A stretch of 64,000 nucleotides of DNA, taken from assembly GCA_965248355.1 (NCBI GenBank), contig OZ252098.1, positions 3,488,001 through 3,552,000 on the forward strand. Direction: 5' to 3'. This stretch comes from Candidatus Latescibacterota bacterium. GTDB lineage: Bacteria > Latescibacterota > UBA2968 > UBA8231. Each line of letters begins with the position of its first letter. Within the stretch, counting starts at the first letter, position 1. Positions 9,916-21,490 of this stretch are shown here, one piece after another. Both the position numbers and the translations under genes were made by a program. The notes beneath the pieces were generated by a model. It was not told where the DNA came from. It saw nothing but the letters and a program-made list of their open reading frames with translations, and searched no databases.

Positions 9916-10815
9916 TCACACCACCGCCTTCAAACAGATTTATGCAACGTTAGGGTACAGGCCCTTGCCTCCATCGATCACCACGAGCAGCCCGGCTTCG
10001 TATTGCAGGCCCCGCTCGACCAGCTCCGCCAGGAAGCGGCGACAGACGCGCTCGTTCTCGGTGGCCGCCTGCACGAAGCCCAAGGGCACCTTCTGGCCCT
10101 CCAGAGTCACACCCAGGGCGATGAGGATCTCCTCGTCGGCGAAGCTCTTGCCGTCCAGAAACAGCGCCACCAGGTCGTAGCCTTCCAAGGATCGCTGCTG
10201 GAATTCGGCCAGCTTGCGCGCCGTGCCTTTCACGTACCGGCGAGAGACCGAGGAACGGGACAGACCGAAGGCTTGCGGGACGGTCTCGGCGCAGGCCTCG
10301 TAGTTGCGCGTGGCCAAGCCCTTCAGCACCCGCAACAACAGCCCCTGGTCCATCTGCCTCGGCGTCTGCAGGGCCTGATAGGCCTCCAGCGGGACCTCGG
10401 TGCCGCGGACCACATCGCGCACGCGCGGCACCTCGACCGGCAGTTTCTGATCGCCCAGGTACACCGACCCGGCCTGCGCCCCCCAGCGGCGCAACGCCTG
10501 ATCCGGACCCTTGCGCTGATACCGAGGTCCGGCCAAGGCCTCGACCGACTGCTGCAGCTCCTCCGAGACCGCCTGCAGACCCAAAGGGATCAGCAGCTGG
10601 ATGACCTCGATGCGAGTCTCCAGATCGTCCATCGACGCGGTGGCTTGGCGGTTCACGGGGCCGATGGCCACGGTCCGTTTGACGCCCTTCTTCCGTGCTT
10701 GTAGCTTGCTCATGGCAGGCTCCTTGGGTTACCGATACGAGGCTTCTTGGGGATTTCTCGTATCAAACGTAACGATGGGAGCCTGTGCTATTTCAACTAA
10801 GATCGGGACAATGCC

Positions 10816-11055: not shown

Positions 11056-13995
11056 CTACACCCGGAACACCTTCATCACCTCGTCCCCGAGGTGGTTGAT
11101 CACCTTCACCGCGATCCGGCCCGACGCCGGCTTGGGAAAAGGCCGGGAGGTGTCGCTGTGCAGGGTCTCCCAGGCTTCCTGGTTGATCTCGGCCTTCAGC
11201 GTCGTCCGCAACGCCTTGTAGGGATCGCTGGCGCCCAGGAAGTAGGCGTGGCGGACGAAGAAGCTCTCCTCGTTGTAGTCGCTGTCGACGAACCAGCAGG
11301 CGATGCCGTCGGCGTTGTCGCTGCGGATTTCTCCGGTGTTGGGGTGGAACACGTCGACGCCGTTGACCTTGACCTGGATCTGTCCGTCCTCTGCGTCGAG
11401 CAGGTCGATGTCCGGCTCGCCGAAGATGACGAAGAGGTTGCCCTTGCCGGTGTTCTTGAGGTCGTCGGCCATGTGGAGGTCGGCGTTCATGCGCGCCTTG
11501 AGGACCGGGACGCGGCCGAGCTTGCTGAACTCCGAGGCGTGGGCGTCGTAGTTGAAGGCGCAGGCGACCAGCACGTCGAAGTCGGCGTCGGCGGCCTCGC
11601 GCACCGCCGACACGAGATCGGGGCGCGAGACGGTGCCGAACTCCGGGCCGATGAAGATGCCGGCGCGTCTCTGGGGCCCGGAGTCGCCGTTGCCGTCGAG
11701 GTAGGTCCCCTCGGCGCAGACGAGGTCGCCGGGCCAGGGCCTGATCCCGGAGAAGGAGATGCGGTCCTCCTTGTGGGCCTGCTGGACGCCGGTGGTCTTG
11801 AGGTTGTCGAGGATCATCCCGGCGAAGTCCTGCTTTTCGCCGTACCCAAGGCTGGCTTCGGCGATGTTGTCGATGAGCTCGTCGTTCTCATTGACACCGA
11901 GCAGGCGGTGCGGAGAGAGGCTCTCCACGGTGAAGGGACCGGCGACGCGGACCTTCCTGTTGTCCTCGTAAGGCTTGTCGTAGAGGTATTCGTAGTCGGC
12001 CTTGGCGGCGATGGAGGCGTCGATCTCCTTCTGCCGGGCGATGCGCTCCTCCCACCAGAGGCTGTGAAGGTCGGATGCCTCCGCGGCCCAAGGGTCGCGC
12101 GGCTGGGCGGGAACGTCCTCGAGGGCGTACTCCCGGCCCAGCGCCCTGTTCAACTCGCGCAGGGCCGAGGACTTCTCCCCGTCCGTGCGCGCGGCCTGGA
12201 CCCTGCCCCAGGCCCGGGTGGCCGCCTCCGGCCACGGGTCACCCACCTCCCGGGGAATCTCCCACTCCTCCCACTCCTGGTACAGCGCCGCGTTCAGCTC
12301 TTCCCTCAGCGGCTCCAGCCTCTCCTGGAACTTCTCCCAGATCACGTCGATCTCGGCGTTGTTGGCGATGGACTTGAGGGTGATGTGGGGGACGCGCTCG
12401 TACACGAAGCCCTGGCGGATGTCGTTGTACGTGGGCGCTTCCGAGGGGGCCTTGCGGGAGATCTCGCCTTCCTTGACCTGGCCGTCGCGGCTGTCGGCGA
12501 GCAGGTAGTAGGGATAGCGGGCGCCCATGATGCGGGCGCGGGCGAGCGCGAGGGCGACGCGGGAGGTGTCGATGGTGATCCAGCGGCGGCCCCACTGCTC
12601 GGCGACGTAAGCGGTGGTGCCGGAGCCGCAGGTGGGGTCGAGGACGAGATCTCCGGGGTCGGTGGCCATTAGGATGCAGCGTTCGACAATCTTGTGCGCG
12701 GTCTGAACGATGTAGAGCTTATCACCGCCCACGCTGCTTCCAACATCTGACCAGATGTTGGTAATTGCCTTCACAGGAAAATCTCGGATGAAACGGACAT
12801 AGTTCAGAGTTCTTCTCCCCTTCATTAAGCGGTTGGCAAATAATAACCGCCTCATGCCCTCTTCATTTGTCTTCCATCGAGCCTTAATGCTTGGTCGAAT
12901 CTCTGCACCCTCAATGGATACGGGAAACCAAGACGCAGCCCCCTCACCTTTATCACGCCCCATGCTCTGGCTTGTCATGTCACTTAGACGAAAGTAATGA
13001 CCTTCGGATAATTCGAGCCCTTGACGCACAGCCTCCATCTCACGCAATCGTTGCCCGTCAGCAAACTCTATGAACTGATATGCCTGCCCACCCGAGCCAC
13101 CCGGCGCTTTCTCAAGGTGTTGAGTACGATACTTTAACTGTCGATGATCTTTTGCATACCATAGAAGGAAGTCAGCGGTGTTTGACAGGTAATCCTGAGT
13201 CGAACTACTCGTTTTCGTGACAGTAATCAGACTTACAAAATTGCCGTCACCCATAGTTTCGTCCAACAACGCCCGCACCCGATGCACATTCTCGTCCCCA
13301 ATCTGCACGAAGACCGACCCGCTATCAGTCAACAAATCCCGCGCCACCGTCAGCCGATCCCGCAGATACGTCAGATACGAATGAATCCCGTCCCGCCACG
13401 TATCTCGGAACGCCTTCACCTGCTCCGGCTCGCGCGTGATGTGCCCGGCGTTGCCGTCCTTGACGTCGCGGCTGGTCGTTGACCACTGGAAGTTGGAGTT
13501 GAACTTGATGCCGTAGGGCGGGTCGATGTAGATGCACTGCACCTTGCCGCGCAGCCCTTCCCGCTCCGCCAAGGACGCCATCACCTGCAGGCTGTCCCCG
13601 AGGATCATCCGGTTCGACCAGTTGGCGTCGTGCTGGTAGAACTCCGTCTGCGCGTCCCCCGCCGGCAGCCCGTTGAAGTCCGCGAACAGGTCGGCCTGGT
13701 CCTCCATCTCCCTGGTCCGCTGCCGCAGGTCGTCGATCAGGACCTTCGGATGCACTTTCTCCTGGATGAACAGCGGCGGCGCCTGCACCACCAAGTCCGA
13801 CCAGTCCTGCTCGTCCTTGCCGCGCCAGACAAGCTGCGGGTCGAGGTCCGGGTTGCGCCGCTCATACGCGACCCTGACCGGATTGCGGTCGTCCTCCGCC
13901 ATCACCGCCTGGTACTCGGCCGTGGGGATGTTCTTCCGCGATGCCTCCTGGTGCCGCAGGCTCTCGACGGTCTTCGTCGACTTTCGTTTCGTCAT
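11056..13995 (-). CDS. mod: Type III-like R-M adenine DNA methyltransferase (Mod, beta class)
   Basis: IYIDPPY catalytic motif precedes LVLDPTCGSGTT SAM motif; C-terminal IAVKVINHLGDE. Confidence 0.9.
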   Translation of the reverse strand: MTKRKSTKTVESLRHQEASRKNIPTAEYQAVMAEDDRNPVRVAYERRNPDLDPQLVWRGKDEQDWSDLVVQAPPLFIQEKVHPKVLIDDLRQRTREMEDQADLFADFNGLPAGDAQTEFYQHDANWSNRMILGDSLQVMASLAEREGLRGKVQCIYIDPPYGIKFNSNFQWSTTSRDVKDGNAGHITREPEQVKAFRDTWRDGIHSYLTYLRDRLTVARDLLTDSGSVFVQIGDENVHRVRALLDETMGDGNFVSLITVTKTSSSTQDYLSNTADFLLWYAKDHRQLKYRTQHLEKAPGGSGGQAYQFIEFADGQRLREMEAVRQGLELSEGHYFRLSDMTSQSMGRDKGEGAASWFPVSIEGAEIRPSIKARWKTNEEGMRRLLFANRLMKGRRTLNYVRFIRDFPVKAITNIWSDVGSSVGGDKLYIVQTAHKIVERCILMATDPGDLVLDPTCGSGTTAYVAEQWGRRWITIDTSRVALALARARIMGARYPYYLLADSRDGQVKEGEISRKAPSEAPTYNDIRQGFVYERVPHITLKSIANNAEIDVIWEKFQERLEPLREELNAALYQEWEEWEIPREVGDPWPEAATRAWGRVQAARTDGEKSSALRELNRALGREYALEDVPAQPRDPWAAEASDLHSLWWEERIARQKEIDASIAAKADYEYLYDKPYEDNRKVRVAGPFTVESLSPHRLLGVNENDELIDNIAEASLGYGEKQDFAGMILDNLKTTGVQQAHKEDRISFSGIRPWPGDLVCAEGTYLDGNGDSGPQRRAGIFIGPEFGTVSRPDLVSAVREAADADFDVLVACAFNYDAHASEFSKLGRVPVLKARMNADLHMADDLKNTGKGNLFVIFGEPDIDLLDAEDGQIQVKVNGVDVFHPNTGEIRSDNADGIACWFVDSDYNEESFFVRHAYFLGASDPYKALRTTLKAEINQEAWETLHSDTSRPFPKPASGRIAVKVINHLGDEVMKVFRV

Positions 13996-14367
13996 CTATA
14001 CGGAGTCCTCGTTGGTCGTACTCAGCAGGGTTCGCAACTCTGGCAGCAGATCTGGAATCGCATCTTGAATGAGTGTCCAGATGATACCGTTACTGATGCT
14101 CAGATAGCTGTGGGCCAAGCGGTTGCGCGTCCCCACAATCGCATGCCAGGGAATGTCCTGGTACGCCTCACGCACCTCGCTCGGAATATGGGTTGCTGCC
14201 TCGCCGATCAGTTCCAGATTGCGCAGGGTGGCGTCATAGGTGAGTCCATCCGCGATGAACGCGTCCTGATCCAGGCCCTCGGTATAGGTCAGCACCTTCT
14301 CGCTGAATTCGATCATGTCCTGAACGTAGAACCGCCATTCTCGCGCTCCTTGCTCAGCATCAGACAT
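13996..14367 (-). CDS. HEPN/DUF86 (HepT-like) RNase toxin
   Basis: LELIGEA, IPW and RNRLAH (RX4H) motifs. Confidence 0.85.
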   Translation of the reverse strand: MSDAEQGAREWRFYVQDMIEFSEKVLTYTEGLDQDAFIADGLTYDATLRNLELIGEAATHIPSEVREAYQDIPWHAIVGTRNRLAHSYLSISNGIIWTLIQDAIPDLLPELRTLLSTTNEDSV

Positions 14368-14650
14368 TGATCACCTCCCGCTCCACGTAGGGGCGAATCT
14401 CGGCGCGAAGGTCCTGATTGGTTGCCAGGTCCACGGGCCGCCCTAGTAGCTCTTCCAAGTAGCCTTGAGCTCCGAAATAGCGTTGCCAATTTGGGGGCAT
14501 GCCGAACCGCACCAGGACGTCGACGTCGCTGTCGTCGGTAGCCTGGTCACGCGCGAAGGAACCGAACAGGGCGAGTTCGGTGACGCCAAAGCGTTCGGAG
14601 AGTGTCGCCTTGTGGGTTCTGAGCACCTTCAGGACTTCATCCCTGTTCAT
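14360..14650 (-). CDS. Minimal nucleotidyltransferase (MNT) antitoxin
   Basis: FGSFARDQATDDSDVDVLV (GSx10DxD); ATG 14650 with RBS. Confidence 0.85.
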   Translation of the reverse strand: MNRDEVLKVLRTHKATLSERFGVTELALFGSFARDQATDDSDVDVLVRFGMPPNWQRYFGAQGYLEELLGRPVDLATNQDLRAEIRPYVEREVINV

Positions 14651-14681
14651 TGACCCTCTCCCTTCCGTGCCAGTCGTCGGA

Positions 14682-14870
14682 TCATCCGATCCGTGGAACG
14701 GCGAGGTTCGCGCAGATCTCGCGGACGAGCAAGTTGTCCACTTCCACGTGGCGCGGAATGGCCGTCTGCCGGTCACCACGAGCGTTCTGCCAGATCGAAT
14801 GCCGGCGACCTGCGCGTAACAGCGTGCAGCCGTGCCGCCGCAAATGCCTGAGAAGCGTCGTGCGCTTCAT
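14682..14870 (-). CDS. hicA: HicA family toxin
   Basis: 62 aa basic protein, GRRHSIW and IPRH; ATGA overlap with hicB. Confidence 0.85.
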   Translation of the reverse strand: MKRTTLLRHLRRHGCTLLRAGRRHSIWQNARGDRQTAIPRHVEVDNLLVREICANLAVPRIG

Positions 14871-15076
14871 GCAACGGAGATCTTTGCCGTCTCATAGCCG
14901 TCCCCGGCCGCCGATCGGGCCGCCTGGCGTCTGATCTCCAACATCTCCCCGAGCGTGACGGCGAGCGTGTCCACGAGCTCTTCGCGGGTGCGTTCCTGGC
15001 AGGTCACGCCGGGTACTTCCTGGATCCAGCCGATCCACCATTCGCCCCTGCGATTCACGATTGCCGTGTATTCCAT
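14867..15076 (-). CDS. hicB: HicB family antitoxin (short form)
   Basis: WWIGWIQEVPGVTCQERTREEL. Confidence 0.85.
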   Translation of the reverse strand: MEYTAIVNRRGEWWIGWIQEVPGVTCQERTREELVDTLAVTLGEMLEIRRQAARSAAGDGYETAKISVA

Positions 15077-15311
15077 GTTCGTTCCTCTCTCGACTTCTGA
15101 ACTTCCTCACTGGGCATTGGAGTTCCCTTGGCACTTCCGACGCCTCTCTGTCCCCTCTCGCAATTTGTCAAGTGCCACGGTCTTTCCGGTGCAAAGGTGG
15201 TGCTGTATTCCGGAGCCGAGTGGCTAAAGCCTGGTGGTCTGTTCCTACGCACCATTTGCGCGACCTCCTCTCTCAGATTTTGGGGCGCTGTACCCGCCAC
15301 GGAGTGGCTAG

Positions 15312-18300
15312 TCATTCGCTGGCCTGGATCTCCACTTCGGAGCGAAGCTCCTCAACCAAACGATTGAACGCAGCTTCCACCTCGAAGACATCCGTAAACT
15401 CGGCAAATACCCAGCGCCCGTAGTCCCCGTGGTTGTTCACCCCGGGGACCCAGTAGGTGTCCATGGTCGCCTTCTTGTCCCTGGCGTCCTCCCCCCGGTA
15501 GCCCTTGATCTCGACGACCAGGTGCAGGAGATCTTCCTCGCCTTGGCCGTCGTCGACGAGGACGATGAAGTCCGGCAGGTAAGTCCGCGTTTCGGAGCCG
15601 GAACGGTAGGGGACCTCCAGGCCGAGGTTGTGGTTCTTGACGTAGGCCCTGACCTGCGGGTGGGACTCGGCGACGCGGCAGAACTCCGCCTCCCAGTCGC
15701 TGTCGAGGACGACCCAGTTGATGTGGCAGCGGCGGGAATCGGTCTGGTACCGGCTGGTTTTGGTGGTGGTGAAATTAACGTGGGCCGTGGAACCGACGGG
15801 ATTGTATGGATCGAGTACGGCCTTGACTGGGCGACGGTCAATTCCCGCTTGCGTGATGGCCGCGGCGATGCGCTCGCAGGCCGTGTCGGCCAGTTCCTGG
15901 TACATGAGTTGGGCGGGATACGTGCCCCCCTTGCAGACGAGATAGCCGTTGAGCCACTGCCTGGTGATCCGCTTGAGCTGTCCGAAGAGATGGAGCTTCG
16001 GCTCCTCGCCCGGGTCGCGGTATTTCGTGTAGAGGAGGCGCTGGGTCAGGTGGAACAGCAGGGTCGAGGTCCGCAGGCCGTCGGTGTGAACGAGGTTCAG
16101 GTCGACCCCCTCGCCGATGATCCCCTGGTTTCTCGTGATCGAGGGACCGACCACTTCGGGGGTCAAGCTGAACTCCGAGACTTCGTTGAACTCGGCTTCG
16201 AGCCGGTCCTCCGGCAGCTCCACCCGGTACCCGGCCACCCGGGGGAAACGGATCTCCAGCGCGTCTCGTTCCGGGCGCACCGCCCGCACGTGGACCGTCG
16301 GTCTCGGCGGCTTCGCCGGGGCCAGGACTGGCTTGGCGGTAAAGTCGAAGGGGATCCCCAAGACGTCGGCGTACTCGACGTCGAACAGGCCGTCTTCGTT
16401 GAGGTCGTATGACTGCCGCCGCAGGGCGCGGCCGACGACCTGCTCGCAGAGCAGCTGCGTCCCGAAGGCACGGACGCCGAGCACGTGGCTGACGGTGTTC
16501 GCGTCCCACCCTTCGGTCAGCATCGACACCGACACCACGCAGCGGATCGAGTCCCCGAGCCGATCCTCCTTGCCGACGGTGTTCATGACCTCCCGGAGGA
16601 GGTCCTGGTCGGTGATCTTCTCCGCCTGGCGGAGGTCGCCGGTGCGCTCGACGATCTCCCTGCGGAAGCGCTCGATCTCGTCGGCGGCCATGTCGCGGAA
16701 GTTCCTGTCCAGCGCCTCCCCGGACTCCAGCTGCTCGCTGTCGATCAGAAGGGTTCGGGGCCTCGGGAGTCGAGTGCCGTCCTCGTCGAAGTTGCGGAAC
16801 AGCTCGAGGCGCCCGTTCTCCAACGTCGTCGGGCGGTTCTCGTTCTCGCGGTGGAAGCCGGAGATGTAGTCGTAGACCAGCTTGGAGGTCGAGGTGTTGT
16901 TGCAGACGATGATGAAGCAGGGAGGCACGGAAATGCCGGCCTCCTGCATCATTTCAAAGGTTTTGCGGTAATGGCCGTACAGCGCCTCCAGAGCGGTCTG
17001 CAGCTCAACGGGCAGGCTCAGGGGATCGAGGTGACTAACCTTGCCCCGCCCCTTCTTCGGCATGTCCTCGCGGATATGCTCCCACAGGTTGCGGAACTTC
17101 GGCATGTCGCCGCCGGGGATGTTGTCGGCCACCGGCACCCGGGGCAGCTTGACGATGCCGCACTCGATGGCATCCATGAGCGAGAAATCGCACATCGTCC
17201 ACGGGAAAAGGGTGCCTTCGGCGTAGCCGGACCCGCGCAGAAAGAAGGGGGTCGCCGAGAGGTCGAATACCCGGTTGATGCCGAGCTTTTCGCCGACGGT
17301 TTCCAGCCCCGAAATCCACAAGCGGGCGGCCTCCGTGTTCTTCTCGGCCTCCTTCCTGTCGTCTCCCTTCAGCGTTTCTTCCTCGACCTCTCCCGGCTTC
17401 TCGCGGTAGCAGTGGTGGGCCTCGTCGTTGAGGACGAGGACGTTCTTCATGCCCATGAGCTCCGGCATGACCCGCTGCAGCATCTGCCCCTCGGTCTCCA
17501 GGGTCGCCAGCGACTCGCCCCGTCCCTGGAGCAGGGAACGGCCCCCCTTGGACAGCTCCATGCGCTCGCGCAGCTTGAAGGCGTGGTAGTTGGTGATGAC
17601 GATCTTCGCCTTCTCCAGGTCGGAGCGCATGTCGTTGGGGACCAGCTCGCGGCCCTGGAAGTAGCTGTCGGGGTCGTTCGGCTGCAGCACCCGCAGGCGG
17701 TCCTTGATGGTGATGCCCGGGGTGACGACGAGGAAGCCGCGGGTGAAGCGGCTGCTCTGGGGCCGGCGCACCGCGTTTATGGTCTGCCAGGCGATCAGCA
17801 TCGCCATGACCGTGGTCTTGCCGGCGCCGGTCGCCAGTTTGAGGGCCAGCCGCGGCAGGTCCGGGTTGGCCTCTTCGTTGGCGTTGGCCAGATGGTCGAG
17901 GAAGTCGCGGCCGGCACGCGCCCTGGGCGCCACCTCGGTGAGCCAGATGGCGGTCTCGGACGCTTCGAGCTGGCAGAAGAAGGGGCGGATGCCGCTGAAG
18001 TGGTGGTGCCGCCAGTGCCGGAGCAGGCGGGCTGTCTCCGGGGTCACCTGCCACTGGGCCTCCGGCAGCTCGCGCCAGCGGTCGACCTGCTGGCGGACCC
18101 CGTTGATGATGGCGGTCAGGTCGTACTGCTGGCCATCGGTCCCGAGCTTCTGGGCCTTCTCGTCGAATACGAGCCTGGCCTGCTGCGCCGAGCCTTTGCG
18201 CTTCCGGGGCTTCGGGATCGGCGTGATGAACTCCGCCTGCCGGCGGCTCTCGATGGTCTTATGGGTCGGCTGCCCGGTCTCGTCCAGCTCCCATTGCCGG

Positions 18301-18356
18301 GACGGCCGCTCGTAGGGAGAGTTGAGAATTGGTCCTTTGAAGAAAGCTTCAGTCAT
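15312..18356 (-). CDS. res: Type III-like restriction endonuclease/helicase (Res)
   Basis: LATGAGKT Walker A, NDEAHH, LSATP, MLTEGWD, QVVGRALRR and C-terminal PDF...VEIKG nuclease. Confidence 0.9.
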   Translation of the reverse strand: MTEAFFKGPILNSPYERPSRQWELDETGQPTHKTIESRRQAEFITPIPKPRKRKGSAQQARLVFDEKAQKLGTDGQQYDLTAIINGVRQQVDRWRELPEAQWQVTPETARLLRHWRHHHFSGIRPFFCQLEASETAIWLTEVAPRARAGRDFLDHLANANEEANPDLPRLALKLATGAGKTTVMAMLIAWQTINAVRRPQSSRFTRGFLVVTPGITIKDRLRVLQPNDPDSYFQGRELVPNDMRSDLEKAKIVITNYHAFKLRERMELSKGGRSLLQGRGESLATLETEGQMLQRVMPELMGMKNVLVLNDEAHHCYREKPGEVEEETLKGDDRKEAEKNTEAARLWISGLETVGEKLGINRVFDLSATPFFLRGSGYAEGTLFPWTMCDFSLMDAIECGIVKLPRVPVADNIPGGDMPKFRNLWEHIREDMPKKGRGKVSHLDPLSLPVELQTALEALYGHYRKTFEMMQEAGISVPPCFIIVCNNTSTSKLVYDYISGFHRENENRPTTLENGRLELFRNFDEDGTRLPRPRTLLIDSEQLESGEALDRNFRDMAADEIERFRREIVERTGDLRQAEKITDQDLLREVMNTVGKEDRLGDSIRCVVSVSMLTEGWDANTVSHVLGVRAFGTQLLCEQVVGRALRRQSYDLNEDGLFDVEYADVLGIPFDFTAKPVLAPAKPPRPTVHVRAVRPERDALEIRFPRVAGYRVELPEDRLEAEFNEVSEFSLTPEVVGPSITRNQGIIGEGVDLNLVHTDGLRTSTLLFHLTQRLLYTKYRDPGEEPKLHLFGQLKRITRQWLNGYLVCKGGTYPAQLMYQELADTACERIAAAITQAGIDRRPVKAVLDPYNPVGSTAHVNFTTTKTSRYQTDSRRCHINWVVLDSDWEAEFCRVAESHPQVRAYVKNHNLGLEVPYRSGSETRTYLPDFIVLVDDGQGEEDLLHLVVEIKGYRGEDARDKKATMDTYWVPGVNNHGDYGRWVFAEFTDVFEVEAAFNRLVEELRSEVEIQASE

Positions 18357-18402: not shown

Positions 18403-19212
18403 TCAATCCCAGGGATCCACCCCCGCCAGCTTCCGCCCAAGGCTGGTCAGCTCGGCCGTCTTCCCTTCGCGGGCCTCCCGTTCCTCGGCGTAGCGCCCCA
18501 GGCCGGACAGCCGCCGCTGCCAGAAGTCCGTGCGCTTCCGCCGCGCCTCTTCGCCATCGCCGGCGGGACCCATGGTGATGTACTGGGCCACGCGGGGACT
18601 GTCGCCGCGGTTGAGGCTCGCCGTGTGCGGCAGGGCGGTACGCCAGATGACCAGGTCCCCCGCCTCGGCACCGATGCGCCGCGTTCCCAGGGCCAGCAGG
18701 TCCTGCGCGCGGGGATCGGCCCCCTCCGGCAACTCGTCGAGCCACGCCTCCAGGCGCTGGTGGAACCCGGGCACGCAGACGAAGGCGCCCTGCTCGGCGG
18801 GCGTGTCGTTCAGATAGAGAACACCCTGCACGCCAAATGACAACGGACGGTTATCCAGGGACGCGTCCCAGTGCAGACCGTGCTCGGGCGCATCCTTGTC
18901 CGGGGCCGGCGGACTGATGCTGGCCCGGTCGTGGCTGACCCACAGCTTGTCCGTGCCCCAGATCTGGCTGAAGGCCCGGTGGACCCGGGGGGCCGTGCGG
19001 TTGTCCCACATGGTCTGGTGCTGGTAGATCTCGACCATGATGCCGGGCCGGTCCTCCGGGTACCAGGTCCCGGGATCGTCCGGGTCCATGCCCGTGAAGG
19101 CCCACACCGCCCGCGCGGTGCGCTCCGCCTGGTCGCGGTCGATCACCTGACGAGCGACGACATACCCCTGTTCGGCAAAGGAATCGAGCTCTTCACTGCT
19201 CAGGACATCCAT
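18403..19212 (-). CDS. PhyH-family Fe(II)/2OG dioxygenase
   Basis: F.EQGYVV, LHWD, VPGFH, AGDLVIW and LPH. Confidence 0.85.
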   Translation of the reverse strand: MDVLSSEELDSFAEQGYVVARQVIDRDQAERTARAVWAFTGMDPDDPGTWYPEDRPGIMVEIYQHQTMWDNRTAPRVHRAFSQIWGTDKLWVSHDRASISPPAPDKDAPEHGLHWDASLDNRPLSFGVQGVLYLNDTPAEQGAFVCVPGFHQRLEAWLDELPEGADPRAQDLLALGTRRIGAEAGDLVIWRTALPHTASLNRGDSPRVAQYITMGPAGDGEEARRKRTDFWQRRLSGLGRYAEEREAREGKTAELTSLGRKLAGVDPWD

Positions 19213-19293: not shown

Positions 19294-19977
19294 TCAGGGC
19301 CCTGCGGCCTCGGGTCTCTTCGCCAGCTGTTTCAGGACTTCCCTCTCCAGTTCCTCGTAGTCGATCTTCCCCGTCCACTGGGCCACGATCCGGCTCTCTC
19401 CATCGAGCAGATACATCGCCGGAATCGCCTTCACCTTGAACTGGTACCAGGCGGGCGTCTCTTTGGCGTCCACAAAGATGGGATAGGTGATCTCCAGCTT
19501 GCCCACCATCCTCCTGATCTTCCTGACCCGGTTTTTCTCTTCGTCGATGGACACACCCCACACGTCGAACCCCCTGTCGGAATAGGCGCCGTGGAGCTCC
19601 TGCAACCGGGGCATCGTCTCGAGACAGGGCTTGCACCATGTGGCCCAGAAATCCACCAGCACGACCCTGCCCTTCATGTCCTCCAACGCCATGTCCCCGC
19701 CGTCCAGCATTTCAACAACGCAGTCTGGTGCGGGTCGTGGAAAGACCGGTGGCAGGTAGGCCACGGGATCCGAGTCGAACTCCACTTTGCACTCTTCAGA
19801 GCAGAAGTAGTACGCCTTCCCGTCATGTTCCGAATGGGCCTTGACCTTCTCCAACTCCGTCTCGCCCCCTCTCAGTGCACAGACAGTGCAAAGGGCCTTG
19901 TCGGGAACCTGGACTTCGGCCATAAGCGCGGCCGAACCCGCCAGGACAATCGGAAACAGGAACCTCCAGTAGCGCAC
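19294..19977 (-). CDS. Exported YHS-domain + TlpA thioredoxin-like protein
   Basis: Signal peptide, CTVC...YYFCSEEC...FDSDP (YHS/TRASH-like), DFWATWCKPC; RBS GGAGGA. Confidence 0.88.
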   Translation of the reverse strand: MRYWRFLFPIVLAGSAALMAEVQVPDKALCTVCALRGGETELEKVKAHSEHDGKAYYFCSEECKVEFDSDPVAYLPPVFPRPAPDCVVEMLDGGDMALEDMKGRVVLVDFWATWCKPCLETMPRLQELHGAYSDRGFDVWGVSIDEEKNRVRKIRRMVGKLEITYPIFVDAKETPAWYQFKVKAIPAMYLLDGESRIVAQWTGKIDYEELEREVLKQLAKRPEAAGP

Positions 19978-19986
19978 GGATCCTCC

Positions 19987-20655
19987 TCACCAGAATCCAA
20001 GAGAAAGGGAGAGGCCCATGGTCTCGAGCCACACATACATCAGGCTGACACCGTATTGGGCGGCGAAATAGTTCAGCAACAGATGTCCCCGGTCGCCATC
20101 GTACATCGGTCGAAGTGAAAAGCCCTTGCCCAGTTCAACCCCCGCGCCAACGGGGAGATTGAACTTCCCATCCCATTCCGAATAGTTCAGACTGCCGTAG
20201 AGGGACGTGCGCACCCAGGGTATGTACTTGCTGACAGTGGCGAACCAGGACTGCTCTCCCGCCGGCGAGCCGATTCGATCCGAGCTCGTGCCCAGGAAGA
20301 GCGCAGGACGCCTCTCCGTCTCGGTCAGCAGGAACAGGGTCGCAAGCGGTCCCGCCTCTCTGGCCTTGGGATTCACCTCGACGCCGACCTGCAGGCGTTC
20401 GTGCAGGCGGTAGTTGGCGGTGAACCGCCACTGGGGACGGTCCATTGAGGTATCAACATACCGTCCCGATAGCGTGACCTTCCTGTGAATGCCGCTCCCC
20501 CGGAGCGGTGCGCCTTCGCCGGGTCAGCCCACTCAGGTGGGCGTCATCGAGAAGACCGGCCGTTCGCTCCGCGTAGAGTCCTCTGGCGCTTCCAGGGCAA
20601 GGACAGGCGACGTGCCCAGGTATGGGAATAGAAGAAACAGGAGACTGAATCTCAT
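19987..20655 (-). CDS. Putative selenoprotein with UxxU motif: signal peptide plus beta-barrel-like domain (222 aa)
   Basis: ATG 20655 with RBS GGAG; MRFSLLFLLFPYLGTSPVLA...TPT-TGA-GTG-GGC-TGA-PGEG... in frame with ORF 19987..20445; SECIS-like hairpin follows. Confidence 0.75.
20492..20508 (-). promoter_or_regulatory. Candidate bacterial SECIS hairpin
   Basis: CCGCTCC-GGG-GGAGCGG; loop starts 22 nt after the second UGA and 31 nt after the first. Confidence 0.6.
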
Positions 20656-20686
20656 CAATGATGCTCCGCTGTGTGGAAGAGTCCGT

Positions 20687-21490
20687 TCATGGTTTGTTGA
20701 GGGACGCGCCCTTCGCCTCCCGCCGCCGCCTCGCCGCCTCCCGTTCCCCCTCGCGCCAGGCCCGGTACGCGGGCGTGTCCACGTGGTCGTGCAGAGTCGC
20801 CCGCGTGCGGTAGGGGACGTAGCTGCCGATGTGCCACAGGGTATTCCGGTAGAGGCAGAAGTCCCCGGCCCCCAGGTGCAGCTGCCGGGCGCCGGGCAGG
20901 GACCGGCAGTACTCCAGGCAGGCGCGCTCCCGCTCCGTCGAGGTGAGACCGTCCAGCTCCGGCCGGGGCACGGGCCGTTCGGGGAAGCGCGCCGCCTCCC
21001 GGGGCAGGTCGGGCCGCAGGTGGGACCCGGGCACCACCCAGGTGGAGGAGTCCTCGTAGAGGGCGCAGTTCAGCTGGTTGAAGAGCGCCGGGTCGCGGTA
21101 GTCGGCCTCCCAGCGCTCGCGGTCGAGGTCGATCACGTTGTCGCGCCAGTCACGGTGCCAGTGGGTGCACCAGGGCTCGTCGGCCGGCTCCAGCAGCACG
21201 CCGAGTTCGCGCCGGCCGTAGGTGTGCTCCGGCGACAGGGTCCGGTGGACGGCGTCCACCAGCTCGGGAAGCTCGGCGAAGTCGGTGAAGGGCCCGTGGT
21301 CGAGATCGTACTCGAAGACCGGCTGCAGACGCTGGGCCTGAGGGCCGGAGCGCTCGCGGGCCAGCTCCCGGGCCCGCCGGCAGACGCGGCGCAGGTCGGA
21401 CAGCAGCGACGGCGGCAGGATCCCGGCGAAGACCGTGTACCCCAACATGCCGTGCTCCTCGATGTGGCGCTCGCTCCAGGTCCAGGACAT
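20687..21490 (-). CDS. PhyH-family dioxygenase
   Basis: WHRD, VVPGSH, AGDFCLY and LWH. Confidence 0.85.
   Translation of the reverse strand: MSWTWSERHIEEHGMLGYTVFAGILPPSLLSDLRRVCRRARELARERSGPQAQRLQPVFEYDLDHGPFTDFAELPELVDAVHRTLSPEHTYGRRELGVLLEPADEPWCTHWHRDWRDNVIDLDRERWEADYRDPALFNQLNCALYEDSSTWVVPGSHLRPDLPREAARFPERPVPRPELDGLTSTERERACLEYCRSLPGARQLHLGAGDFCLYRNTLWHIGSYVPYRTRATLHDHVDTPAYRAWREGEREAARRRREAKGASLNKP

Follow-up and report, generated by a model that had tools for sequence, protein, structure and literature searches.

The window, a stretch of 64,000 nucleotides of contig OZ252098.1 from a Candidatus Latescibacterota bacterium, carries on its minus strand a gene for a 222-residue precursor (19987..20655) that we predict, from its sequence, its homologues and its modelled structure, to be a beta-barrel protein with two selenocysteines. 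The frame runs from ATG 20655 to the TGA at 19989-19987, and its 222 codons include two internal stops, both of them TGA. The preliminary description of this DNA had proposed that a ribosome-binding site, a start codon, a signal peptide and two in-frame TGA codons lie upstream of the annotated frame, and that one open frame runs across them. We found each of these elements at the proposed position, with no further stop before the terminal TGA. The ribosome-binding site GGAG (20664..20667, minus strand) lies 8 nt 5' of the ATG. Residues 1-20 (20596..20655) form a putative signal peptide, judged by eye from a hydrophobic N-terminus ending V-L-A and from the same pattern in homologues (for example SPVFA followed by QE). 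The internal TGAs are codon 41 (20533..20535) and codon 44 (20524..20526), which places U41-V-G-U44 in the context P-T-U-V-G-U-P-G-E-G. Residues 41-59 (20479..20535) make up a segment that we call the UxxU arm, and residues 60-221 (19993..20478) a predicted 12-stranded beta-barrel with an aromatic last residue. The annotated table-11 ORF (19987..20445) covers only residues 71-222 of the full protein.

Both TGAs were crossed, with no differences, by contigs from two other runs (X2 record 8 and X3 record 16), so that faulty assembly does not account for them. Contigs from RNA libraries cover both TGAs; such contigs cannot reveal transcription, DNA was possibly present in those libraries, and stretches without coverage carry no meaning. 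In all four runs compared, contigs of other organisms matched solely at 20484-20526, a segment holding the second UGA and the hairpin described below, which identifies it as the most conserved DNA of the gene.

Nine nucleotides past the barrel stop begins a second minus-strand gene (19294..19977), which encodes an exported partner protein of 227 residues. The partner carries a YHS/TRASH-type metal-binding module (19789..19890, C30-x2-C33 ... C59-x3-C63, Pfam YHS E 2.7e-9) followed by a thioredoxin domain (19342..19734, W-C115-K-P-C118) that matched AhpC-TSA and Redoxin above cut-off. Its matches to ResA (E 5e-26) and TlpA (E 1e-17) both fell under the curated cut-offs, so the assignment is at the family level only. 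An exported thioredoxin-like domain with WCxxC, here WCKPC, is the trait of the TlpA/ResA family. The partner lies directly downstream of the barrel gene in 89 of 103 loci; ten of the others have no room for it, two have it further off and two lack it. A DsbD-type gene is also present in this genome.

The barrel and partner genes (19294-20655) have a GC content of 0.60-0.61 and a GC3 of 0.73-0.79, compared with 0.70-0.74 and 0.87-0.97 for their neighbours, and the two-gene module was not found in the nine other genomes of the genus. The low GC and the lack of matches in congeners suggest a recent horizontal gain of the module. Minus-strand genes for PhyH-family dioxygenases flank it at 18403-19212 and 20687-21490, the upstream one weakly matched. 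We do not count these genes as part of the module, and they do not recur generally; PhyH genes were otherwise seen near two further loci (L120 and L141). Farther along, the minus strand holds at 11056-18356 what we take to be a type III restriction-modification-like pair, with a methyltransferase at 11056-13995 and a helicase-nuclease at 15312-18356. Between these two lie what are presumably small toxin-antitoxin-like genes (13996-15076), and the ORF at 9940-10713 appears to be transposase-like.

After removal of duplicates, TGA occupied both codons in 91 of 91 distinct related genes. The terminal stops of the same gene set, by comparison, varied (57 TGA, 35 TAA and 28 TAG, with two more lost to contig ends). 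Among loci from named genomes, 21 of 23 had the signal peptide and both TGAs, one of the others lying at a contig edge and one being disrupted. A pattern search over 134 loci, a set that spans genomes and metagenomes and includes duplicates and the window's own locus, returned TGA/TGA in 122, and not one locus had TGY or TGG. Of the remaining 12, four did have TGA/TGA and four were cut by contig ends; L030 and L061 were disrupted, L064 had both TGAs and then a later TAG, and L051 is by position apparently the same place as L017. In Acidobacteriota, both TGAs were present in all 29 loci read, each as U-x-x-U-P-G-E. Counting distant relatives, we found the family in 34 of 168 genomes of the organism's own phylum and in 34 of 401 sampled Acidobacteriota genomes; the latter sample represents the phylum of a Thermoanaerobaculia record, and its 34 include one unpublished genome whose locus was omitted. 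As a measure of chance, 58 of 5485 long TGA-ending frames in the genome have a second in-frame TGA three codons on. The preliminary description had reasoned that a pseudogene with two nonsense codons would show neither TGA nor Cys conserved at these positions, and that a shorter gene would have homologues starting at the downstream Met. Instead, homologues keep both TGAs and the upstream signal peptide, and Cys homologues exist. Broken copies of the barrel gene do occur (L017, L064, L030/L061 and L174), with extra TAA or TAG codons, a lost N-terminus or a shortened frame; the module is therefore under loss in some lineages.

A 7-bp hairpin with a G loop had also been claimed to follow the TGAs, and it is present, with a GGG loop, at 20492..20508 on the minus strand. 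The hairpin has a predicted energy of -11.5 kcal/mol and lies 31 nt from the first and 22 nt from the second UGA, so both codons fit the bSECIS spacing rule of 16-37 nt given in section 5 of PMC13188914. For both UGAs it also lies within all four limits of the bSECIS consensus model presented in that section. A bSECIS-type hairpin of equal strength was found at 27 of 600 sampled terminal TGAs of the genome, and at the true stop of this gene there was nothing of similar strength (-2.2). The isolated 17-mer stood out from shuffled sequences (z -2.6). Longer stretches around it, folded as single sequences, had no advantage over shuffled controls (z -0.86 to +0.32), and thus the signal for the hairpin comes from comparison. 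Over 20 distinct sequences, 96.4% of stem cells were paired, a value reached by none of 500 shuffles and set against 31-70% for slid controls. In the 91 genes, the wobble bases of the stem covaried: one such pair was G-C in 55, A-U in 15 and G-U in 12, and another was C-G in 80 and U-A in 8. Codon entropy for Leu, Arg and Gly in the hairpin was 0.44-0.62 bits in these genes, compared with about 1.3-2.2 bits in the conserved GTSSDRIG region. Acidobacteriota genes maintain the stem by changes on both sides while the encoded amino acids differ. The apical core of the hairpin resembles that of the selD hairpin of the same genome. Taken together, the comparison leads us to conclude that one shared bSECIS probably serves both UGAs.

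The machinery for selenocysteine, which the preliminary description had asked of the genome, is complete: selA, selB and the gene for tRNA-Sec (selC) are clustered at G000:C1:2828867-2832304, and selD lies apart from them at G000:C1:4976879-4977802 (L007). The selD gene is itself a selenoprotein gene, with an in-frame TGA (T-C-G-U-A-A-K) and a hairpin of its own. A second match over the tRNA-Sec cut-off (L004, G000:C1:4145031-4145121, 49.9 bits) is probably a long-arm tRNA-Ser or tRNA-Leu. We rejected a reassignment of UGA to Trp (code 4) or Gly (code 25), because TGA ends 2360 of 3411 long frames and is the main stop of this genome, the code being table 11. Genomes with the close family had selA in 31 of 32 cases in the organism's own phylum (the exception, G095, is 81% complete) and in 31 of 31 cases in Acidobacteriota, against backgrounds of 131 of 168 and 83 of 101 genomes. 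We count this association as weak support, because selA is common in both phyla and related genomes are not independent.

Homologues with CxxC in place of UxxU were among the relatives that the preliminary description had proposed to look for, and two kinds were found. The nearer ones read P-T-C-A-G-C-A-G-E, with CxxC at the same place as UxxU, and two records of this branch are named Fimbriimonadaceae. In a tree of 67 rows, with dense UxxU groups thinned and a midpoint root, the Fimbriimonadaceae-type CxxC clade was nested among UxxU forms (support 96/81). The nesting suggests a change from Sec to Cys in this clade, an apparent change on which, given the long branch and the midpoint root, we do not rely. 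The second kind is a more distant family with C-G-P-S-C-P-V-C-S-G, in which 67 of 70 proteins have CxxC; the family profile (alignment A4) places this CxxC opposite the U sites. Members of this distant barrel family (N-terminal C-G-P-x-C-P-x-C-S-G) lie at L190:10711-11388, L191:7410-8060, L187:3964-4626 and L188:7540-8181 and among proteins P0293-P0362, and they carry no annotation. Among the carriers of the distant family checked for selA, G198 gave a match and G013 and G469 gave none.

Could the gene instead encode no selenoprotein, being a pseudogene broken by two nonsense codons, a shorter gene starting at Met71, or one in which UGA means Trp? Several observations appear to speak for this: of the 120 closest homologues in the database, 118 have an annotated length of only 130-166 residues, the two long ones (P0030 and P0069) have W at both Sec sites, and the copies noted above are truly broken; a further homologue, P0136, reads C..W. 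A start at Met71 would leave out the first strand of the barrel as well as the signal peptide, and the annotated starts in the database scatter over all positions past the second UGA. A Trp reading is opposed by the complete lack of TGG and TGY among the 91 genes and by the use of TGA as the main genomic stop. As for the W residues, contigs of other organisms, read by eye at their loose ends, give T-S-T-A-P-T-TGA-S-A-TGA, which is the peptide context of P0069, and table-4 gene calling is therefore the likely cause of W in these records. Together with the Cys homologues and the covarying SECIS, these observations make a non-selenoprotein extremely improbable, and we regard it as nearly certain, as far as sequence comparison can tell, that the UGAs at codons 41 and 44 are decoded as selenocysteine.

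Two AlphaFold runs with different alignments each predicted 12 strands over residues 60-221 (mean pLDDT 87.6 and 84.3). The closest structure matches were outer-membrane barrels of 12 strands, namely FapF (Z 16.3, rmsd 2.4 A, 167 residues aligned), KdgM (Z 16.0) and the COG4313 protein Pput2725 (Z 15.9), and autotransporter structures followed at Z 13.5-14.7. From these models we predict with high confidence that residues 60-221 form a 12-stranded outer-membrane barrel. The proposal that the body is a beta structure rather than a thioredoxin fold is thus supported: the model contains no thioredoxin-fold helix, and no thioredoxin profile matched. The read-through protein likewise matches no family model, as had been suspected; Pfam and NCBIfam (June 2026) returned no family for it at E <= 1. 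Among 101 aligned members there was no meaningful match in either collection, with NF041027, NF049945, NF041115 and PF00578 absent at E <= 0.1, and sequence searches of the PDB with the barrel protein gave nothing meaningful.

The position of the arm was addressed through the aligned ranges. Alignments with open porins begin only at mature residue 38-41, and those with plugged barrels at residues 12-23. The FapF alignment starts at model residues 12-14, and we take the FapF arm to enter its barrel from the periplasm. EspP 1023/1024 and Hbp 1100, presumably in-barrel cleavage sites, are matched by model residue 22-23, and residue 2 of Pput2725 is matched by model residue 23. From residues 21-23 onward, the model thus lies alongside the segments that Pput2725, EspP, Hbp and FapF hold in the lumen. 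According to section 4 of PMC4493636, the first fourteen residues of Pput2725 fill the lumen from the periplasmic side and the N-terminus almost completely occludes the 12-stranded barrel. With much less confidence than for the barrel, we propose that the UxxU arm, with UxxU itself at mature residues 21-24, enters from the periplasmic side and sits inside the pore as a plug; this placement draws on aligned ranges only, and the pLDDT of the arm is 52-73. The invariant or near-invariant polar residues R45, R57, E73, D106, R107 and H171 (mature numbering) may line the lumen.

The partner domains also occur fused to the barrel. Among the 29 Acidobacteriota loci, 22 have a TlpA domain (a count that includes L153, which the pattern missed and which was added from reading the locus) and 4 a YHS-like domain fused in frame ahead of UxxU, and 3 have the free form. 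A YHS-TlpA or TlpA-type gene lies alongside in at least L179 (free form) and L180 (YHS-fused form). The PF00578 domain of the Acidobacteriota fusions keeps an ordinary CxxC, with UxxU downstream of it and before the barrel; gene callers split these fusions in two. No YHS domain was detected in the Acidobacteriota TlpA fusions scanned. In the Cys branch, up to three YHS domains precede CxxC, and YHS-fused CxxC proteins have no thioredoxin domain. This pattern of fusion indicates that the UxxU arm is the probable target of both the thioredoxin and the YHS domain. Ten fusions (L150, L155, L158, L163, L164, L167 and L169-L172) have an extra N-terminal domain of about 110 residues with CxxC and two more Cys, for which the members scanned gave no Pfam match.

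We also surveyed genes around the module at other loci. Metal-related neighbours were present at 3 of 12 extended Acidobacteriota loci, as a multicopper oxidase with TolC and CDF, as CDF with DsbA/DsbB, and as DUF4198 with a CYCXC (seleno)protein. At the other nine, no metal gene was seen among the ORFs scanned (52 proteins). Among 106/133 candidate neighbour ORFs of metagenome loci, taken from the same strand only and chosen by a rough GC3 filter, there was no recurring metal gene, and no third gene recurred around the module across the extended Acidobacteriota and metagenome loci. One distant CxxC relative lies directly after a TolC-MFP-CusA/CzcA operon. At least three His occur within the 45 residues before UxxU in 11 of the 22 TlpA fusions. 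Redox neighbours were a 1-Cys peroxiredoxin at L183, DsbA/DsbB at L177 and SelR at L144.

With such a partner, the selenocysteine pair would more likely undergo active reduction than persist as a stable diselenide. Against this step, the redox potentials of diselenides are very low, and the dithiol of TlpA may be unable to reduce them. We nevertheless consider it probable that the periplasmic TlpA-type partner, fed by DsbD/CcdA, would keep the pair reduced in the oxidising periplasm. As to what the reduced pair would do, our favoured explanation, held tentatively and somewhat short of probable, is by analogy that the diselenolate in the pore would bind a soft metal ion, most likely copper and possibly Ag or Hg, and exchange it with the YHS/TRASH domain of the partner. 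This would make the module a small site of metal capture or passage that needs no TonB, whether for uptake, export or sequestration, and an outer-membrane counterpart of TlpA with ScoI/CoxB. We favour metal binding because TlpA with ScoI and CoxB, whose Cys pairs are described as being kept reduced ahead of copper binding (PMC6669012), is the closest working model, and because the YHS domain is described elsewhere as a probable copper sensor (PMC4626032). The His-rich linkers, the metal neighbours at 3 of the 12 loci and the distant relative after the CusA/CzcA operon are in its favour; against it, most neighbourhoods have no metal gene, and the module's own neighbours encode PhyH-family dioxygenases.

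The main rival is an electron relay over the outer membrane, in which electrons would flow from DsbD through TlpA to U41/U44 in the pore and on to an oxidant that is outside the cell or enters the pore, such as disulfides, polysulfide, peroxide or selenite; the cysteines of the YHS domain would then be structural or a regulatory sensor. Thioredoxin is the most constant partner (adjacent in 89/103 loci and fused in 22/29, with no YHS detected in the fusions scanned), redox genes neighbour three loci, and section 7 of PMC13188914 regards most Sec-bearing CxxC-type motifs as redox sites. Yet a YHS/TRASH domain is adjacent or fused in three branches, the YHS-fused CxxC proteins do without thioredoxin, the His-rich linkers suit metal binding better, and no substrate clue recurs among the neighbours scanned; we rate a relay as rather unlikely. 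It is quite improbable that the barrel is a redox-gated porin or sensor, in which the diselenide or diselenol state would hold or free the plug and TlpA would open or close the channel for an unrelated solute. The occluding N-terminus of Pput2725 (PMC4493636), with which the model aligns from residue 23, would suit such a gate, and R45, R57, E73, D106 and R107 could hold a plug, but a U-x-x-U loop of four residues can close within itself without shifting the plug, and nothing points to any solute. Less probable still is a display function like that of autotransporters, in which the barrel would export its own N-terminus and leave UxxU, with any fused TlpA or YHS domain, on the cell surface. 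Such a function is suggested by the order of signal peptide, domain, linker and 12-stranded barrel and by the alignment with the presumed cleavage sites of EspP and Hbp. In most loci, however, a separate gene encodes the partner as an exported protein, which would remain periplasmic, TlpA requires periplasmic DsbD, the start of the FapF alignment fits an arm that presumably enters from the periplasm, and no autotransporter Pfam model matched.

Metal binding remains our preferred account of the reduced pair. More broadly, the adjacent or fused module points to an undescribed envelope system that handles metal or electrons. A bolder reading, which we think doubtful, is that the module is a heme-free and TonB-free redox or metal gate of the outer membrane, in which a diselenide/diselenolate within the 12-stranded pore would be charged from the periplasmic side by a dedicated, often fused, thioredoxin and would react with oxidants or metal ions that come in from the exterior. 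If true, selenium would carry the Dsb electron chain as far as the cell surface, and the gene would be a clean example from nature of one bSECIS decoding a pair of UGAs spaced three codons apart.

We found no description of the family in the literature. The catalogue of 119 families (PMC13188914) has in its Table 1, whose rows also cover the families of Haft and Tolstoy 2025, no small barrel with a TlpA partner and no entry that fits, and a term search of one BSepDB supplement (PMC13326102) gave no match. By these comparisons the barrel protein represents a new family of selenoproteins whose architecture is new as well, and we infer its function. It adds a widespread family that gene callers have shortened in nearly every record. 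Two-Sec proteins are rare, and Table 1 of the catalogue includes no outer-membrane UxxU protein. Natural UxxU and CxxC versions, both free and fused, make the reason for using selenium at the cell surface directly testable. The same variants allow tests of whether a periplasmic thioredoxin reduces a diselenide and of how one SECIS serves two close UGAs.

SelL is a thioredoxin-fold UxxU protein with a diselenide bond. The barrel protein shares with it two Sec three residues apart and differs in having neither a predicted thioredoxin fold nor a matching profile. Table 1 of PMC13188914, a catalogue of 2026, contains three UxxU entries and two outer-membrane selenoproteins. The UxxU entries, a Prx-like thiol:disulfide oxidoreductase (PF00578), the metal-binding NF041115 and an FmdB-family regulator (TIGR02605), likewise have two Sec three residues apart, but as catalogued there they are thioredoxin-like or small soluble domains rather than barrels, and their profiles did not match here. 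The outer-membrane entries, the GSU2204 family MtrB/PioB-type barrel (NF041027) and the TonB-dependent receptor of FCYXU type (NF049945), likewise place Sec in a predicted outer-membrane barrel. These have one Sec each and belong to other family models, which no member of alignment A4 matched at E <= 0.1, whereas the protein described here combines two Sec, a small predicted barrel of 12 strands and a TlpA/YHS partner.

In fold, the barrel protein shares with COG4313/FapF the predicted 12 strands and, at low model confidence, a putative N-terminal lumen segment (Z 15.9-17.4, rmsd 2.3-2.7 A over about 166 residues). It differs from these proteins in identity (10-16%), in length (about 200 residues against 270-320) and in having no sequence-level match, and the section of PMC4493636 that describes Pput2725 mentions neither a Sec pair nor a TlpA partner. 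Autotransporters of type Va are similar in fold (Z 13-15) and had no Pfam match. YjbH (PF06082) accounts for 14% and 48% of the members of the language-model look-alike clusters of two Cys homologues, but its Pfam model touches 1 of 101 family members, weakly (E 0.096), and YjbH is a distant relative at most. In function, the model is TlpA of Bradyrhizobium diazoefficiens with ScoI/CoxB, where a vicinal thiol pair is described as being kept reduced for copper (PMC6669012). Here the presumed client would be a Sec pair in an outer-membrane pore and the partner has a YHS/TRASH domain; a link to cytochrome oxidase was not seen for the barrel and partner module. Taken together, we conclude that the barrel protein, which by sequence belongs to neither family, would work like a client paired with TlpA and is predicted to fold like COG4313/FapF.
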